This document shows positions 2,946 through 19,118 of a stretch of DNA of 64,000 bases, piece after piece; positions within the stretch are counted from its first letter, which is position 1, and every line of letters begins with the position of its first letter. The notes beneath the pieces were generated by a model. It ran no database searches, was not told where the DNA came from, and saw only the letters and a program-made list of their open reading frames with translations. The position numbers were made by a program, and so were the translations under genes. Origin of the DNA: Isurus oxyrinchus (taxonomy: Eukaryota); the NCBI GenBank assembly GCA_026770705.1, contig JANJGN010000007.1, positions 153,574,001 to 153,638,000 of the forward strand. The letters run 5' to 3'.

Positions 2946-3135
2946 CTTTACTGTTGGAAAACCCTGTTGCGTCCGATCTTTCACAGAGCCACGGCTACCT
3001 TCCGTCAAGTACCGTGCCCTGTGCTGTGTCTCAGGTTGAACCAGTACCTTGAGTTCTTTGCCCTCACTTTTACCAGGATAGTGACCAGTTAGTGCTGGGC
3101 CCTTTTTTAAAGTAGTTTTCGGTGATTCCGTTGTT
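2946..3135 (-). CDS. NFAT5: NFAT5 coding exon, start of Rel-homology DNA-binding domain, 190 nt, phase 2-0
   Basis: [63 protein letters not shown]; [17 protein letters not shown] is the NFAT5-type DNA-recognition loop; acceptor tttctcAG (3136-37), donor GTAATT (2944-45). Confidence 0.97.
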
Positions 3136-9198: not shown

Positions 9199-9742
9199 CC
9201 ATTGCTCCCCTTTGAGCTGTTTTTGCCTTCTGAGGTGAGTTGAGAAAGTACATAATGGGGTCCTTTTGCACTGTCTGCATCAAAGACATCCATATTCGAC
9301 TCTTCATCATCCACACGCACAAAGCCTGGTCGTTGTTTAGGTGAACGTTTCCGTGACTTCCGTGGCACTGTTGTGTTGTCATTGTATGAACTGGAACTCA
9401 TGATGCTGAAGTTGGAGCCTGATTCATCCATCCAAATATTGCTGCTCTGTTCCGAGTCACCTGCATCATCCTGACAAGACATCCTGCTGTCATCGAGCAA
9501 GTCTTCGGGTGGTGGAGAGATGTTGAGTACTGTCCTCCTTTTGGGTGTGGACTGCAGCTGTGGGGCATTACTTAACTGATTTTCATAGCTCAGTAATTCA
9601 CTTACCCCATGGCCACTTACCCCCTGTTCTGGAGTGCAGCTATCTACTTGCATAGATGTGTTGTCAGTTATTGAGGTAGAATGCATGCTAGGATTGGAAG
9701 ATGGGGTGAAGGTGCTGCTTTGACCACCGCTGGAGGAGACAT
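9199..9742 (-). CDS. NFAT5: NFAT5 coding exon (export-domain region and NLS), 544 nt, phase 1-2
   Basis: [28 protein letters not shown]...[24 protein letters not shown]...[24 protein letters not shown] matches the NFAT5 N-terminal region; acceptor ccacAG (9743-44), donor GTTGGT (9197-98); frame joins both neighbouring exons. Confidence 0.96.
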
Positions 9743-10034
9743 CTGTGGTATGTACAATCCAAATGTAAATATACACATTTCAACGTGAGTTAGCTAGCAT
9801 TGTCCAAATGTGCTCTGTTTAATTGTTCACAAAGCTTTAACTCAACAATTTATACAAGTTCCAAAACGTGAATAGTTATCAGTTAACACTGGAAGGTTAT
9901 TTTTTTTAAAACTGGGAGAGAGGGTATAGTACTCTCTATGATACCAATCATATTCAGGGCAAAAACGATAAACGCTGATACATTATAATTCAGTTGGGGT
10001 TGCTTATAGTCAAATAACAAAATAATCTTCTGAC

Positions 10035-10071
10035 CTACGGAGTAAAGAATTGCTGCTTGACAGGCAAATTC
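10035..10071 (-). other. NFAT5: Candidate 37-nt NFAT5 cassette exon (possible counterpart of the human alternative stop-containing exon)
   Basis: gttttttcattagttccAG|GAATTTGCCTGTCAAGCAGCAATTCTTTACTCCGTAG|GTCAGA; 5' part resembles the recalled start of the human alternative exon (GATTTGCCTCTGAAGCAG) in the same intron. Confidence 0.5.
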
Positions 10072-10221
10072 CTGGAACTAATGAAAAAACAATTAAGCTA
10101 AACTTAAAATTATAACTATTGTCCATTCTTAAAAGTAATTACAAGAAATATACATAAATATTAATCTAATGAATGTGTATATGAAAAGCAAAATGGGACC
10201 AGTGTTGCATACACTTCTCAC

Positions 10222-10238
10222 CTTCAAGACATAGTCCT
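10222..10238 (-). other. NFAT5: Candidate 17-nt NFAT5 microexon
   Basis: T9-CCCCAG|AGGACTATGTCTTGAAG|GTGAGA: near-consensus acceptor and donor only 17 nt apart. Confidence 0.4.
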
Positions 10239-12099
10239 CTGGGGAAAAAAAAATTCCTTTGATACGCTCAATACTCTTGATCTATAACAGTATTTGGCAC
10301 AGCAGGTCAGGAAAAAGCTAATTGAACAAGTGATTTGAACAAGAAGTAGAAAAGGGAAGGCGATATTTCATCTGAATTTGAAGTAGACTCCAAAGTAGGT
10401 GCAATGTAGGTGGGATCCTCAGATTCGTTGCATAATAGGTAATGGACAGTTTTTATGTTAACAGCATAATATCTAAAGGACATTAGATGCATGAAACAGA
10501 CACCAAATTTGTTCTTACCCTATTCCAAACTCCTCAAATGCTATACTTTTAACAGACCCTGAAAACAAATTAAAACCTGACAAAGTCTTAGTTTCCTTAA
10601 AATTTTAATAATGACTTCAATTACATATTTTCATATATAATCTTAAAAGTTCCCTCTCAATACATAGTATTTTCAAACTTCTGCATTTGTTTAACAAATT
10701 TTTTATTTGCAGCCACTTTATTAGGTAAGACTGTTAAATGCTTTGTTGTAAGTAGAGCTCATTTTCTAAACTTTCTTTTTGCTAGTTTTTATCCCTCTCT
10801 TCCTCTCTGGTCCTTCTCGAAGTACTAACACCATTGACAACTACTAAACAAGGACCTCCTCTTAGCAAACAGGCTAGCAAACTCTCACCAATAAACGCAA
10901 GAAGTTGCATTCCACTATTACAGCAAGGTATAGCCTTCACATGTTTGAAGAGCATATGGGATGTACCAAACCAACAAGTGATTTTCAACATCTAACTGGA
11001 ACTGGCAAAAGACTAAGCAGTTTGTGGCCTGTTCTTGGAAAGCCACTCGATACTCCCAGGAGGAGACATCGGCTCAGCACAGAAGGGTAAATAAGAGACA
11101 CCGAAAAAGAAGCCACTCGGTCATGCCAGCAACTCTAAATCAAAAGGATCAGTAGAAGGCAGGACCCCATCGTTCCAACTGAACAAACTACATCACCCCT
11201 AAAATCCACTTTCTCCCAGCACCAGCCCAAGTAACGTAATCAAAATATAAAGCAATCAAAATGTACAATAGTTTTGGAAGTTTAAAAAGGCAAAGTTCAC
11301 AATTTAAAACAATGGAATACCCCACTTATTCCATTTGTAAAGAATATTCTTGCAATCTATTTAATTACCACGTGAGTGGTATTGGAACACCAATGAAATG
11401 TTCAACTGATTGTTACAGCAAAAACATGCAGTAAGCTCTAAACTAAAAAATAAATGTTTTCAGTATTACAAAATGCCAATGGAAAGTTGGTACCACAATG
11501 ATGAGAAAAATAAATGATCTTCTGCTGGTACCTCACTTAAATGGTCATTCCTCACCTCTAAGCCTATACAGTGAATGTTGGCAGACTATTATACTGATGG
11601 GGTGGTGGTGAGAATTCGTAGGTTTGCTCCCATCCTCAATTTAAGTCTACACACTTAATTTTCAACAGAAATTTTAAATTTCTGATATTTATGGCTCAGT
11701 TCCACAAAAGACACTGGACTTAGCAGCTGATTAATAATTGTTTTTACGTATGTACTATCCAAAATAAACAGCTCTCAATGAATTTAAAACAATAATCTAC
11801 TTAAGGTGGACAGATAAACCACTGGAGTTACGCTTGTACTTTAGGATATTTTATGAACCCAAATTGTATTGTTGTTTCATATTTCACAAAGGTATCCACT
11901 GCCTTTTTTCAAAACCGCTAAATTAACTGGATTCCACTGCATTATTTTTTGAAATAAAGAATTCGATATAAGTTCAAGTTAAAAAGCTTGGGAATACTTT
12001 TCCCTCATTTATTAGAAGCACAGGCACCACTTTGCCACAATTTCTTTAAAAATCTGCCAAACTCGAGCATATTCCTAAAATTATTAAACTTCATTTAGT

Positions 12100-13080
12100 T
12101 AACTGCACTATGTATTTTCTCCACATTCCACGTCATCCTTTGGCATTTCTCCCATTTTCAGCGTGATCTCATCATTAAAAACATTAAACTTTGTCTCCCA
12201 TCCCCTTTCAACATTTGAAAGGAACCAACCCACCATGACACTGAAGACTCTCCCCCAATACCCTTTGTCTTTCCCACAGCACCTTCCCATGGAAGGACAG
12301 AAGATGCCCCTTTACCTCCTCCACTCCCACTGACCAGGGCTCCAAACACTCCTTCCAGGCGAAACAGCAACTTACTTTTATTTCTTTCAACTTAGTATAC
12401 TATATTCACTGCTCATGATGTGGCCTTCTTGAAATTGGGAAATCAAACACCAATTGGGTGACAGCTTTGCAGAATACCTGCAGTCAGCCAGCTTGTTCCC
12501 AAGCTTCCAGTTGCCTGTCATTTTATTTCTCTGTCCCACTCAGTCCTTGGTCTCCTACACTTACCCGATGAACCTCAACGTAAACTTGAGGAACAGCATC
12601 TCATTTTTTGGTTAGCTGCTTTTACAGCCTTCTGGACTGAACACCGAGTTCAACAATTTCAGATCACAACCTCTGTCACTACTTTCTCAGACAGCAGCTG
12701 GTGTTGATTCTGCCATTCTCACTTACAATTCCTCTAAAACTATCTTTTGTTCCATTACTTGTCCTATTACCATCTTCTTTTGTGTGCACCATCATACCTT
12801 TAGCCATTTAATCTCTCCTGTGTTCCACCCTATCAGACCCTCCCTTTTGTTCTTCCCCCACCTTTCTTTGCCTCTACTTGCTTAAAATTTATAACTTTTA
12901 ACAACTCTGCTTAAAATTTGTGACTTTTAACAATTCTTAACTTTTTCCAAGCTGATAAAAGGTGATTGACCAGAACCATTAAATCTTTTCTTTCTCCACA
13001 GATATGCCTAATCTGTTGAATATTCCTAATATTTTCTGTTTTAATTTCAGGTTTCCAGCATGCACAGTGTTTTATTTTTG
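12100..13080 (+). mobile_element. Penelope-like element 3' fragment (GIY-YIG region and tail)
   Basis: Remnant of SFQxKQ...SFNLVYxIxCxxCGL...GDSFAE; tail ctttctccacagat...tttccagcat shared with 26430-26560 and 44350-44450. Confidence 0.8.
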
Positions 13081-15634
13081 TATTTTCTAATGCTGATAAT
13101 GAAGCAGAAAATAAAATGGTAATATGGCAATACTGTATATGAGAAACAAATTCAGGATACAGCAATATACTGAGGAAAAGAACTTGAGCATACAAGCAGC
13201 AGCACTTGGCAAGAACTCTGATTCATTGCAGAAGCTTGACACCACCCTTAGGGAAATTAAGTAATTTTATTACAGTTTTAACATGATTAATTTTGAGATG
13301 AAACAAAGCATTTTTGGTTTATACAAATTCAACAGTGAGCAATGAAAATATAATTCAAAGTCAGTTTTCCCTTTCCCAAAGTTAAATTAACCCATGATTT
13401 GGATTAAATAATGTTGATATCAAAATGGAACTTCAACACTAAAATATTGAATTATATAATTATTTGAATGAAAAAAAACTTTTGAATTAAGAGGTGACCT
13501 CACTGCAATTATTCTATACCAATGTGCGTATTTCTTCCAATTTTCTCCCCATCTCTCATGGATTGTTCACTCTTATCAAGGTATGGTTCACCTAGTCCCA
13601 GTAGCCTACTTGACAATGGAGGGCACCATAGCAAAGCGTGATCCAGTCCTTTCCCAACATCAATACATGTGCATTTTACTCAGTCAATCTTTTTGCAATC
13701 GTAAGGACTGTAAACCGTGGCTGATGTTCTATCCAAACCAAAAGGCACTGTTGCAGCTCATTATAGTTCATCAAACATGCAAACAAGGAATCAAAGCTGA
13801 TACCATCTGGTCTTTATGGACATACCAGAGTGCATTTATCCACTAAGATGTTGAAGACCTCTGAGCAATTATAGTTAAACTTATGATAAAAAATGGTCAT
13901 TGACTCAAAAAAATTCAAACATCTTTCAATCACTTCAGCAGCATTCCTCATCACCACCACGGGCTACCCTAATTTTCTGAGCTCCCATACTTGGTGTAAC
14001 ATAATCCACCAGTCCTCCTGAACACCTTTGACTGTAGGTACACCCTTCCCCGATACTTAATGGTTGAACCTACACAACTAAACCCCAGCTCCCCATACCT
14101 GTTCCACCCTCCTATCACTCTCCCTCAAAATGATCTGCTGCTCTCAACTTTGGGCTTCCTAATACCCGACCTCAGACTTTGCTGGTCACCTCCTCCTTCC
14201 CTCTGAGCCACACATATACCTATGCTCTGCCACTCACTCTTTCCCTTTAAATATTAGACGTTGATTCCTTTAAAAAAAACTTAGGAATTAATTACAATTT
14301 ATGCTGCTAAGAAGTCCATAATTTTTAAATACATGCACAGCTTGTTAAATATAAATATTAAATGTAATTTTGCAACGACAGATCCGTAGAAAAAAAATCA
14401 TAAAAGTATAGTTACACTGAGTAAAAATTCAATCGCAAAACAAACATGGAAGAAAAACAAACTGATATCGGGACAAACAAAATAAAAGTGATTAGAGGTG
14501 AATAGATTACTTTTAATACTTAAGCTTATGGATAACACCAACTAGTACTGAGATAACCTTGGAAACTAAGGTTAACAGAAAAATTGAGTACCAGTTCTGA
14601 CTAAAGATTTTCAAGGAAGGAAATTTTAAAAAGTGGCTGCAAATCAATATTATGGGGTATATTCCTCTCCATTCACTATTTTTTAGTAGAAAGTTAGCTT
14701 TGCGTCTACTTTTTTACTAAAAATAGCAAAGAGAAAATAAATTTGAACGTAAAGGCTATTGTTCTTCCTCATTTTATGCCTAAAATGGGAATATATTAAA
14801 TTTCAGGATCCTAACAAAATGAACACTTGTTCTCAAACCTTTGCAAAATCAATCATAGAATACAGAAAGAAGTTATCAGAGAAACACAAAGACCATTTAT
14901 GTGAAGAATGAAAGCGAAACCAATTTATTTTCTGGATAAGGAATGTTAGGTTAAGCATCACTGACATAGAACTGACTTTTATTTATGACGCAGATACAAC
15001 TACAACAATGGCACAACCACACTTTCATGTATAGTAATTAGAAAAAAAAACTAATCAAAGGCTGGTCAGTGCAATGGATTAACACACATCACTTACATTT
15101 CTAGGTTATGGATTTTAAATTGATACAAATCATAGTGGATAATATAATAGTCTCCTCTCTCTGCTGTTGTAACAGTACTACAAAAATTAATTTGCAGAGT
15201 CGCAACCAATTCATAACCACACTCCAAATACCACTGTCTTTGGTGGGCATACAAACAAAACTGGTGATCAGAGTTACTTGGCAGTTACATAGACATCTAC
15301 AATTTAGGGTCTAAATTTTGATTCAGCTGTTCTGCAGAGTTCTTGACTCTCATGTACACTGCAGATAATTTTTCCTCTTGTTCTTATGAAATCAACAAAA
15401 ACAAACAATTCAGTCTGAATTCTAAGCATTCTTGAATAGGATGTGCACCCCTCAAAGGGTGCAGTTTCCTTTCCACTTCCCAGATGACATTAAATATACA
15501 GCCATTTATTAACTCACTTCTCTTCTTCCCTCTCCCCAAATTATACCATCGAGCTAGTGGGTAAGTCCGTCTGGACTCGTCAATGCAATGTTGTACGAAT
15601 AACATGAAAGAATTCTATTTGATTTGCTTCTTAC

Positions 15635-15715: not shown

Positions 15716-18451
15716 CTAAAGGGGAAATGGAAATGTCTGTTTTCACAGAAGAGGTCCTCCATACACACATATACACATCTTCTTTTCTTAACATCAAAAA
15801 CATAAACTGAATATATGTCATATGAAGTTCTTCTAACAGTTAAATCCTAAGATGCATGCAGTTTGTTCATGAATATGAAAACCCCAAAACCCAACTGCTA
15901 ACTTTGAAGATCTCTCTTTCCTCAAATAACAGGGATTAAGATATAATGGAAATACCAAGTGCATATTTTTTCCCTAAAATTTCCATGGCTCATTTGCAGC
16001 ATCTAGTGGTAGAAAACTAAATGAAGTGCCACAATAGTGCTGTACAAACTTGCTCTTCGGATTAAAATATGAAAATATTGACAGGTCCTTTGCCATGATG
16101 AAAACAATTCTCAAATTAAATTTTAACAAAAAATGGGTTTAGAATTTTTGTTTCTTCAAATGATATTAACTATCAATGTTTTCAAAAATTGCTTCTATGA
16201 ACTGGAAGTTATCAAATTATTTTTATGTATTTCAATTTTAAAAACAATGTTTACTTATCAATAGGAAATACCACTCCTGCCCTCAGTCGCCATCAGCTCA
16301 AAGTACAGAATTGCAGAATTTGTTCTTGAACACGTTTTATCAAATAAACAAGATTTAGGACATCTGTTGGTCTCAGACTTGCAGCATGTATTATGGGCGT
16401 TACCAATCTTGGGTTATGTTTCCAGCTTCCGTTGTTCAATAGATCCACAACTTTGTTTCCATTTGAAAGTTGGAAAACAGTCGACAAAGCAAATTAGGAA
16501 CTTTTAAAAGCTCAATTCATGTCAAGCTTCAATCACATGGAAGTAGTTACAAGCGCTGTGCTTTGTGGAATGAAATTTTGCCGAGTTTCGATTCAAGTGA
16601 TTTTGCTCTCAAACCAAGTTAAACAGTTTGCGCCAATATGAAGCCAAAACCACTTCTGTGACGGCTGTTCGCCAAGAATTTGTGGGGAAATTAAAGCTTA
16701 GAAAACATCAGAAATGCTTCATTAAATCAAGGTGTCCCAACAGCAGCACCGAATCAACTGACAAATTACAGGCTGCCTTTTAGCCCACTCCCAAGAGTGG
16801 TCCCTTTTCCCCTTCAAGTCATCCCAGACCTTGCAACTTGCCCCAAGTCTGCCTAAACACCCAACTCCACTCTACTTCCAAGATAACAGTCCACTCCTAG
16901 GTCCTGTTTGACTATCCCTTCTTGAAATCTGTCTCCTGGGATTCCCTCCTACCTTTGCATGCCAGCCTGAGCCATCTGCTTCTTTCTGGTGTCACCTTCC
17001 TAAGGTTTTTCCACTAATTTGAAAATGTTGCAGCAGGATGCTGAAAGACATTGATACTGTTTGTCTGTTGTTACAAAATGCCCTGGAATGATTCAAATTA
17101 GAAGACAGCAGACCAGGATGGATACTTGTTCTCGCTAACCTGTTTTTTCCTGCTTTGCAGGAAAAAAAAGTTTTTAAAACAGATCAATCTCCTGCAGATG
17201 GTAAAAGTAGGCAGAACTGGAAGATGCCTCCTTGGAAAGTGGAATCATTCTCTCAATTTTCTCCAAGTGCATCCACGGTTAGGTCTTATGAAATTAAATT
17301 TAGGATTACAATGATGCAGAAGAGATCATCTGTGGTTTCCATTGGAGAAATGCAACAAATTCTGCAGGCACCTTAGGATCAGAACTATGAATCTGCCTTC
17401 AAGTCTCCAAGGGCAATGATGGGAAAAGAAGAAATATATTGAAGGATGTAATGAAAGAGCGAAAAGGGTGTGGAAGACAAAGAGAGTGAGAAAGGCAAGG
17501 GGGGAATTTTGAGAGGCATGCAGTAGAAGACTTACAGAAAGGAAGACAAGGAAAGATAAAGACAAACACATACTGTAACAAGGTTTCATAAAGATACAGA
17601 CAGAAAAACTGGAAGACAAAGCAGAATAAAAAAAAGGATGATTTAGCAAAGGTAAGAGGAGTGGAAAGGAGCAAAGTATAATGTTGAGAGAAAAAGAGAT
17701 GAAACCATAAAATAAATAAAAATTGCTGCTTATTTGCCAAAAAAATCATATTCCCTTACAAATGGATAGTTCATTCAGCAATATATTGCTTAATCTTAGC
17801 TTTGAATTTTAGTTTATTAAAAGCATCTATATTTGAGGGGAAAATAAATTAGGTTAGTTGACAGAATAGCTTCAAAATTCAGACTAAGACAGATATACAA
17901 ATTGAAAATATGGATTAGAATTCAGTACCAGAAATACAAAAACATGGTACTTTTTTTAAAAATTGTGAATTATTTAGTTTCACTCTGTTATTTAAAGATG
18001 GCGTCATAGCAAGATGGAGTAAAAAAAAGACAAAAACAATCGATATGTAATGCAAAGATATTTCCCAAGAGTATGTCAATGATATCTATAAATTGTATCT
18101 TATGTCATTTACCTCCATCAAATGGTTTATGGATATTTCTGATGTAACATTAATTGGTATTTCAAATTAAGTTTAAAAAACAGCTATACCACATAAACAA
18201 GATTCGCAAGTTTGAAAAATACGGATTATATAATTGCACAGTTAAGTACTCATTAAAAAAATGCATGTTTTAGGGACCACGGTAACTTAAAGCTGTACCT
18301 GGCCATACTTCTAGCACACTGTATCCACACTCCTCTTTTCCCACACAGATAATGTTGCTGATTAGAACATTCACTGATTACATTGTGTGATTCACTGAGA
18401 ATTAGAGCAGTTCAATTGTGCCTTTGAACTACTGCCAGTACACACAGTTGT

Positions 18452-18598
18452 TGGCTTGGCCTAAATAGCCAAGTGGTTATGGTACTGGGCTTGTAACCTC
18501 AAGATCAAGAGTTCAAATCTCACAACGGCAAACTATGAAACAATGTAACTTCATCTGAATAGGAACAGATGGAAACGTGTTTGTACTTGAAAGAGTTG
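18452..18598 (+). mobile_element. Short tRNA-derived SINE-like insertion with 11-bp TSD
   Basis: A box TAGCCAAGTGG, B box GAGTTCAAATC, TGT anticodon loop, poor acceptor stem; flanked by cacacagttgt (18441-51, 18599-609). Confidence 0.75.
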
Positions 18599-18665
18599 CA
18601 CACAGTTGTCAGCAATCATATCTGAATTAAAAAAGGAAAGAGGGAAACTAAATGGAACTGCATAC

Positions 18666-18788
18666 CAGGAGCAACTGCAGCTGAAGGAGGAGATGTTGCC
18701 TCACCACCACTTTTCTGACTCATTGATGCAATACTTGTCTCACTTGTTGGAAGCTGCAGCTCTTTTGGCAGGAGGTCATACACAGATT
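18666..18788 (-). CDS. NFAT5: NFAT5 coding exon (equivalent of the human ESVYDLL... exon), 123 nt, phase 1-1
   Basis: Translates [41 protein letters not shown], close to recalled human [42 protein letters not shown]; acceptor ttttctttatAG (18789-90), donor GTATGC (18664-65). Confidence 0.95.
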
Positions 18789-18921
18789 CTATAAAGAAAA
18801 AAAAACTATTAATTGAAAATGTTAACCTAATGTTTTTCCAATCTTCACTACTAAATGTAATAACTACAGTAGCAGGGATGCACATGATACCCATGTAATG
18901 AGAAACCCGAAACACAATGGT

Positions 18922-19118
18922 AAAGGCAAAATATTGTGGCTGCTGGAAATCTGAAACAAAAACAAAAACTGCTGGAAAAAACTCAGGTCTGACAGCATCT
19001 GTGGAGAGAAAGAGAGTTAACATTTCAAGTCCATATGACTCTTCTTCAGACTCTGATTCTTCTCTGATTCTTCAGACGCTGTCAGACCTGCTGAGTTTTT
19101 CAACATTTTTTGTTTTTG
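18922..19118 (-). mobile_element. Non-autonomous Penelope-tail insertion with inverted partial copy, 13-bp TSD
   Basis: gaaacacaatggt at 18909-21 and 19119-31; inverted arms aaaaactcag..gtctgacagc / gctgtcagacctgctgagttttt. Confidence 0.85.

Follow-up and report, generated by a model that had tools for sequence, protein, structure and literature searches.

The window, by which we mean the whole 64-kb stretch of shark DNA that was analysed, carries part of NFAT5 on its minus strand, with exon 1 of the gene lying ~22 kb beyond the window end (Table 1). The intron between the 123-nt and 544-nt coding exons is 8923 nt long and holds two candidate cassettes 150 nt apart, of which A has a nine-T tract, a CAG acceptor and an AAG/GTGAGA donor, and B a CAG acceptor and a TAG/GTCAGA donor; a second, weaker AG lies 2 nt inside A (10236) and would give a 15-nt in-frame form. 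The region that spans both cassettes (10000-10280) has a single match in this genome in a search that ignores very common words, which rules out, within that limit, a repeat or transposon origin for A and B. A tblastn search of the intron 1 part of the window (18789-64000, minus strand) gave no counterpart of the 54-nt alternative exon 2 of mammals.

Skipping both cassettes keeps the reading frame, and including both adds 54 nt that are in frame and free of stops. Either cassette alone shifts the frame and brings a stop into the 544-nt exon, 75 nt into it for A and 55 nt for B, or 469 nt and 489 nt before the next junction, respectively; that junction is supplied for both single-inclusion stops by the exon at which the Rel-homology domain begins. 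Lying more than 450 nt before a junction, the B-only stop is well beyond the 50-55 nt upstream of a later junction that the usual rule for nonsense-mediated decay (NMD) asks for. Re-examination of the sequence upheld what the preliminary description had set out for both cassettes, namely their coordinates, splice sites and frames, the stops through which inclusion of either alone would truncate the protein, and the stop-free 54-nt sum with the peptide given for it.

Table 1. Features of the NFAT5 locus in the window (window coordinates)
Feature	Position	Strand	Description
Upstream NFAT5 coding exon	18666..18788	-	123 nt, phase-1 end; 100% match to database shark NFAT5 (tblastn)
Cassette A	10222..10238	-	17-nt candidate micro-exon, putative second poison or decoy site; from sequence, frames and splice ranking
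Cassette B	10035..10071	-	37 nt; orthologue of vertebrate NFAT5 poison exon, by likeness of its ends
Intronic block conserved in organism F (distant shark)	10053..10229	-	3' end of A, A-B intron, up to nt 19 of B
Conserved intron end, weak acceptor	9743..9854	-	precedes the 544-nt exon
544-nt NFAT5 coding exon	9199..9742	-	100% identity to Carcharodon NFAT5 over 180 aa, suggesting a lamniform-like shark
Stop codon for B-only inclusion	9690-9688	-	from frame translation
First in-frame ATG of 544-nt exon	9686-9684	-	start of annotated short isoforms
Stop codon for A-only inclusion	9668..9670	-	past the first in-frame ATG
Next NFAT5 exon, Rel-homology domain start	2946..3135	-	tblastn; AG and GT boundaries scored

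In a metagenome collection, one of 267 pattern matches was confirmed, on a vertebrate contig (L001) that is teleost by sequence; the teleost comparison consists of this single locus of a single paralogue. In the corresponding intron, 547 nt above the large exon, L001 carries a 63-nt exon (L001:2155-2217) that, read after the phase-1 junction, encodes GSSL followed by a stop at the fifth codon. GSSL is also the C-terminal tail of four annotated teleost short models (Perca, Pangasianodon, Oryzias and Channa), so these gene models include the exon, and a fifth, fish-like model ends in GISL (GSSL and GISL together in 5 of 357 database proteins). Read in frame 0, the same teleost exon matches the amniote poison tail at 8/8 residues (E 1e-5). 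This tail is the truncated amniote peptide given in the preliminary description, and its existence was confirmed in database proteins, where it ends 17 of the 357 examined, including alligator and a member of the primate/UniProt 'Isoform B' cluster; the exon behind it we take to be 62 nt long.

Other truncated models were met among the same proteins. Three lemur models (P0185, P0193 and P0353) have ~15 extra residues before the poison tail, which may stem from additional sequence upstream or from faulty annotation, and short NFAT5 models from eel, sturgeon and catfish (P0170, P0175 and P0356) have in common a different truncating tail that starts VPRF, possibly because the large exon is skipped and reading continues out of frame.

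Cassette B matches the teleost exon at both ends. The teleost acceptor with the first 19 nt is identical to B at 17 of 22 positions (14 of 19 for the exon part alone), the last 18 nt with the donor at 20 of 26, and the 9-nt donor TAG/GTCAGA is the same in both, so that ends, acceptor and donor together are 77% identical. Each of the two blocks in B is the best ungapped match on both strands of the 64-kb window (the next best scoring 15 and 16), and the blocks are adjacent and in the same order as in the teleost exon. The local alignment score of B with that exon is 51, a value reached by 0/300 shuffles (maximum 44.6). Internally B is 26 nt shorter than the 63-nt teleost exon, and it lies 292 nt above the 544-nt exon, compared with 547 nt in the teleost. 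A crude splice matrix ranks B fifth of 2773 AG...GT candidates (9-80 nt) in the intron and gives its donor a weak 1.6 bits, equal to the teleost donor.

As the amniote poison tail had no direct tblastn match to shark B, the homology link runs via the teleost exon. Over this bridge, which combines both ends with the 8/8 residues, the proposal that B is an ancient homologue of the mammalian alternative (poison) exon has held up: judged by its ends, B is orthologous to the NFAT5 poison exon of other vertebrates, with an interior 26 nt shorter than in the teleost. Since these ends are found in both teleost and shark, the exon would be as old as the jawed-vertebrate ancestor, and the NFAT5 poison exon probably dates to the first jawed vertebrates. 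The sole phmmer match to a 42-residue open frame across B was an unrelated repetitive protein of 1215 aa and was discarded. RNA folding showed nothing beyond shuffled sequence (z 0.03 for B, 0.07 for A, -1.06 for the teleost exon and 0.40 for the large-exon acceptor), and inverted repeats around the cassettes were short or AT-rich and at chance level only.

For the use of these junctions we drew on eight of 24 listed runs (seven studies, six coded organisms), which were taken as RNA, with which their spliced junctions agree; the material consists of assembled contigs only, at depth 5-120, and assembly drops rare forms. The junction that skips both cassettes was present in RNA-like contigs of 8/8 runs: in 4/4 runs 18666 was joined directly to 9742 at depth 5-12, and in a further 4/4 contigs ran from the 544-nt exon into letters matching the end of the upstream exon. 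Among the matches listed, bin 10002-10335 had no cover in 4/4 runs, and the contigs of the other four held no cassette-to-exon joins; since contigs of this depth lose rare forms, the missing cassette joins are not counted as absence. Interspersed repeats at 12300-13340, 18450-18600 and 18920-19000 of the window were plentiful in the RNA-like contigs.

Among the 357 database proteins, none of the 133 with a readable 123-nt/544-nt junction has an insert there, and the +18-residue insert was found in 0/54 chondrichthyan proteins, lamniform models from Carcharodon and Cetorhinus included. The direct-junction pattern accounts for 45 of these 54, with three starting at a Met inside the large exon and six others (direct with different residues, a shorter splice, a partial model, two short models and one genomic frame). 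Truncated shark proteins of the single-inclusion kind were likewise not found, among 55 hits of 60 candidates or among the best 120 of 144 in a second search, and two short NFAT5 models from chimaera have tails unrelated to the single-inclusion products. In a Mobula model (P0150) the middle of the upstream exon is joined to the large exon, which suggests an internal donor and a shorter in-frame form.

Among four other sharks, the 544-nt exon is nearly substitution-free over its first 191 nt (9742-9552), with the remainder differing by up to ~6%: this stretch holds 0/16 substitutions in organism D (p 0.001), 0-1/16 in organism C, 1-5/27 in organism F (not significant at worst case) and 1-3/10 in organism H (not significant), a pattern suggestive of an overlapping signal for splicing or translation. 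Although the acceptor of this exon has only a poor pyrimidine tract, its conservation extends to read-through sequences of frog-, amniote- and teleost-like type (9/11 residues between the frog-like read-through peptide and 9784-9752), and the intron end that contains it (9743..9854) also aligned locally to L001. Regulated splicing would fit both the conserved flanks in a distant shark and the near absence of substitutions over these 191 nt. Within this stretch the B-only stop ends one base before the first in-frame ATG, from which short models start in Callorhinchus, Stegostoma and Chiloscyllium, and the Pro-Ser-Met codons underlying this stop/ATG arrangement are found in 49/54 chondrichthyan proteins.

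Cassette A ranks first of the 2773 candidates of 9-80 nt in the 8.9-kb intron and has a higher matrix score than every real exon of NFAT5 scored here; the 50,950 nt of sense strand scanned elsewhere contain no site as good, and the opposite strand has three in 63,850 nt. Because the matrix, which is crude and built from vertebrate splice frequencies, scores the real large-exon sites of the gene below zero, and because A was chosen for looking good, this ranking is suggestive only. Over the ~430 nt above the teleost acceptor (L001:1700-2130), no A-like micro-exon candidate scored above zero.

Conservation of A and B could be followed in part into a distant shark, organism F, which has 27 differences in 545 exon nt and an implied Thr-to-Met change otherwise seen only in carpet-shark proteins. 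One of its runs (X11) contains an unspliced 707-nt contig covering 9714-10229 of the window at depth 8, against ~90-120 for spliced contigs, and this may be a retained intron, pre-mRNA or DNA. The sequence aligns over 10229-10053 (177 nt) with 25 differences and 3 gaps, all of the gaps in the pyrimidine tract of B, and over 9854-9714 with 8 differences and 1 gap, and between the two blocks lie 214 unaligned letters, compared with 198 in the window; at the 80% setting, the neighbouring intron did not align to organism F. The first block takes in the last 8 nt of A with its donor and ends exactly at nt 19 of B, the point at which the teleost exon is 26 nt longer, an alignment end that would fit a longer B in organism F. 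At the loose end beyond A, inspected by eye, the 5' half of A differs, the nine-U tract is kept and the AG at the aligned acceptor of A is lost; the next AG, 3 nt further, would give a segment of 14 nt, which shifts the frame as 17 nt would. From these comparisons A looks like a maintained, partly conserved splice-like site in sharks. Its first rank and the 14-nt equivalent would also be expected of a functional partner of B.

How the two cassettes relate depends on the frames in which B and its relatives are read. Double inclusion reads B in frame 0, the frame that amniotes use for their exon and in which they end at the poison stop. The teleost exon in frame 0 runs into a stop at nt 34-36, within the part that has no counterpart in the shark, so the in-frame sum of A and B could have arisen only after the deletion. 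Lengths of 17+63 and 14+63 nt are not multiples of three, and with the assumed 62-nt amniote exon a 17- or 14-nt partner would likewise leave the frame unrestored; the frame complementarity of A and B thus does not hold for the teleost and amniote versions. In-frame and stop-free pairs are expected by chance at ~0.15 (1/3 for the frame, and 0.46 stop-free in 20,000 shuffles). The 54-nt sum is likely to be incidental or recent. The resemblance of EFACQA in the double-inclusion frame to the amniote GFASEA, pointed out in the preliminary description, follows from homology of the DNA and not from a conserved peptide: the exon is read in a different frame in each of the three lineages, teleosts using the one that gives GSSL and a stop, so the likeness of the peptides does not reflect coding constraint.

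With somewhat more belief than doubt, we read the remodelled B as the shark poison exon, A as a rarely used decoy or second poison, and the A+B sum as incidental. B would be skipped by default and included at a low, regulated level. Its inclusion would shift the frame into ~95 codons ending at the stop far upstream of a junction, and the resulting message would likely be degraded by NMD or re-initiate at the ATG one base past that stop; re-initiation at 9686 would parallel human NFAT5a, and is uncertain after so long a frame. A would act as its likely second, seldom used site in the conserved upstream flank of B, and its inclusion alone would lead to a stop past the internal ATG.

An unlikely alternative keeps B as a working poison exon and makes A a chance AG...GT pseudo-exon at the edge of the conserved flank, never spliced. 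The changed acceptor of A in organism F and the lack of an A-like candidate above the teleost exon agree with this, and flanks of the human poison exon are reported to be conserved anyway (10.64898/2026.06.30.735642), but A outscores all real exons of the gene scored here and all other candidates in the intron, and the organism F alignment passes through its donor, with a U-rich tract and AG persisting upstream.

A switch restricted to this lineage is an unlikely alternative, which in its explicit form would hold that, after the 26-nt deletion, this shark lineage came to use A and B together for an NFAT5 of +18 residues, with single inclusions unproductive. The best splice candidate in 8.9 kb does lie 150 nt from B, ~3 sites per 115 kb of control sequence equal it, the pair is in frame and stop-free, and the first AG after the U-rich tract at the loose end of organism F gives, by eye, a length of the same frame class. 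Against this, chance alone yields such a pair in about 15% of cases, the insert is carried by 0/54 chondrichthyan proteins, lamniform models from Carcharodon and Cetorhinus included, A keeps neither its aligned acceptor AG nor its 5' half in organism F, and there is no sign of coordinated inclusion; we think this explanation unlikely, or slightly worse than that. Quite unlikely, too, is the fuller form in which the deletion, by freeing B of its stop, made it half of a two-input gate. If true, A and B together would yield the +18-residue NFAT5, B alone, ending one base before the internal ATG, would yield a short isoform without the N-terminal export signal, and A alone, running past that ATG, would be null.

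That B is a decaying relic, an ancestral poison exon disabled by the deletion in this lineage with neither cassette in use, we consider improbable. The internal loss of 26 nt, the weak donor and the contigs that span the intron by joining its flanking exons directly are what a relic would leave; its ends, acceptor and donor have nevertheless stayed 77% identical to the teleost where nearby intron cannot be aligned even to a distant shark, and inclusion at the new length would still put the message out of frame, with a stop far enough upstream of a junction for NMD. The combinatorial switch common to jawed vertebrates that the preliminary description proposed is very improbable and is contradicted for bony vertebrates, for although B is ancient and the A+B frame is the one amniotes use, that frame is closed by a stop in both the teleost exon and the amniote peptide, the summed lengths are out of frame, no A-like candidate was found at the teleost locus and no protein examined carries the +18 insert.

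Work on human cells has already described a poison exon in NFAT5, and it is reported to be conserved across amniotes. According to two reviews, DDX5/DDX17 favour inclusion of a human premature-stop exon, cited as 'exon 5' of Germann et al. 2012, with NMD as the outcome (PMC12105643, PMC9382309). In data from mammals and chicken, LeafCutter2 counts NFAT5 among the genes with conserved poison exons (bioRxiv 10.1101/2025.04.06.646893), and a 2026 preprint finds that the human event is sensitive to NMD in HeLa and escapes it in HCT116 and PC3, and describes conserved flanks around the exon and footprints downstream of the stop (10.64898/2026.06.30.735642). We infer that the amniote tail derives from the exon described in these papers. 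Human NFAT5a is described as lacking 76 N-terminal residues and the CRM1 export signal (PMC2737149, PMC6115610), and its lipid anchoring is mentioned in a review (PMC12105643 / PMC9382309). In the literature searched, largely open access, there was no report of a fish or shark NFAT5 poison exon or of a paired cassette, and the accessible text of a salmon NFAT5 paper has no passage on such an exon.

NFAT5 is the main tonicity regulator in animals with very different osmotic strategies, and exact junctions are now defined at which salinity- or urea-dependent control of NFAT5 dosage in sharks can be sought. Were the A+B form real, it would add a rare example in which a poison exon has been co-opted as coding sequence.

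The arrangement resembles, in part, the decoy or cryptic cassette exons that Parra et al. (2018, PMC6097662) describe in intron 4 of SF3B1, which are short and conserved, lie in a long intron and are seldom observed in spliced form unless NMD is inhibited. The unspliced shark contig at ~1/10 of spliced depth, from one run, would be in keeping with this likeness and may equally be pre-mRNA or DNA. Unlike the SF3B1 decoys as described there, A is only partly conserved and is known here from its sequence: it is aligned on the donor side in one distant shark, with its acceptor shifted by 3 nt, and has no counterpart found at the teleost locus.

The closest known system is the amniote NFAT5 exon of UniProt 'Isoform B'. 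Like it, shark B lies in the intron between the ..VAA/VAP exon and the DAS/DVS exon, has ends that are homologous via the teleost exon, is set in conserved flanks and would, on inclusion, be expected to end the protein ahead of the Rel-homology domain, with an in-frame Met in the next exon. Unlike the amniote exon, B has no internal stop, its stop falling in the next exon, and the downstream Met in the shark gives MHS.. rather than the MGG.. of NFAT5a, a myristoylation site, elasmobranchs being without an MGG.. start. The shark also has the additional 17-nt exon-like site upstream, and inclusion of B and its NMD are predicted only. The teleost exon differs from B in turn, being of frame-preserving length (63 nt), poisoning by its fifth-codon stop and having no A-like site upstream. 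The frame entered on inclusion thus differs among shark, teleost and amniote, and across them the exon keeps its splice sites and changes its mode of poisoning, from a late internal stop in amniotes to an early one in the teleost and a predicted frameshift in the shark, which argues for selection on the unproductive splice rather than on the peptide.
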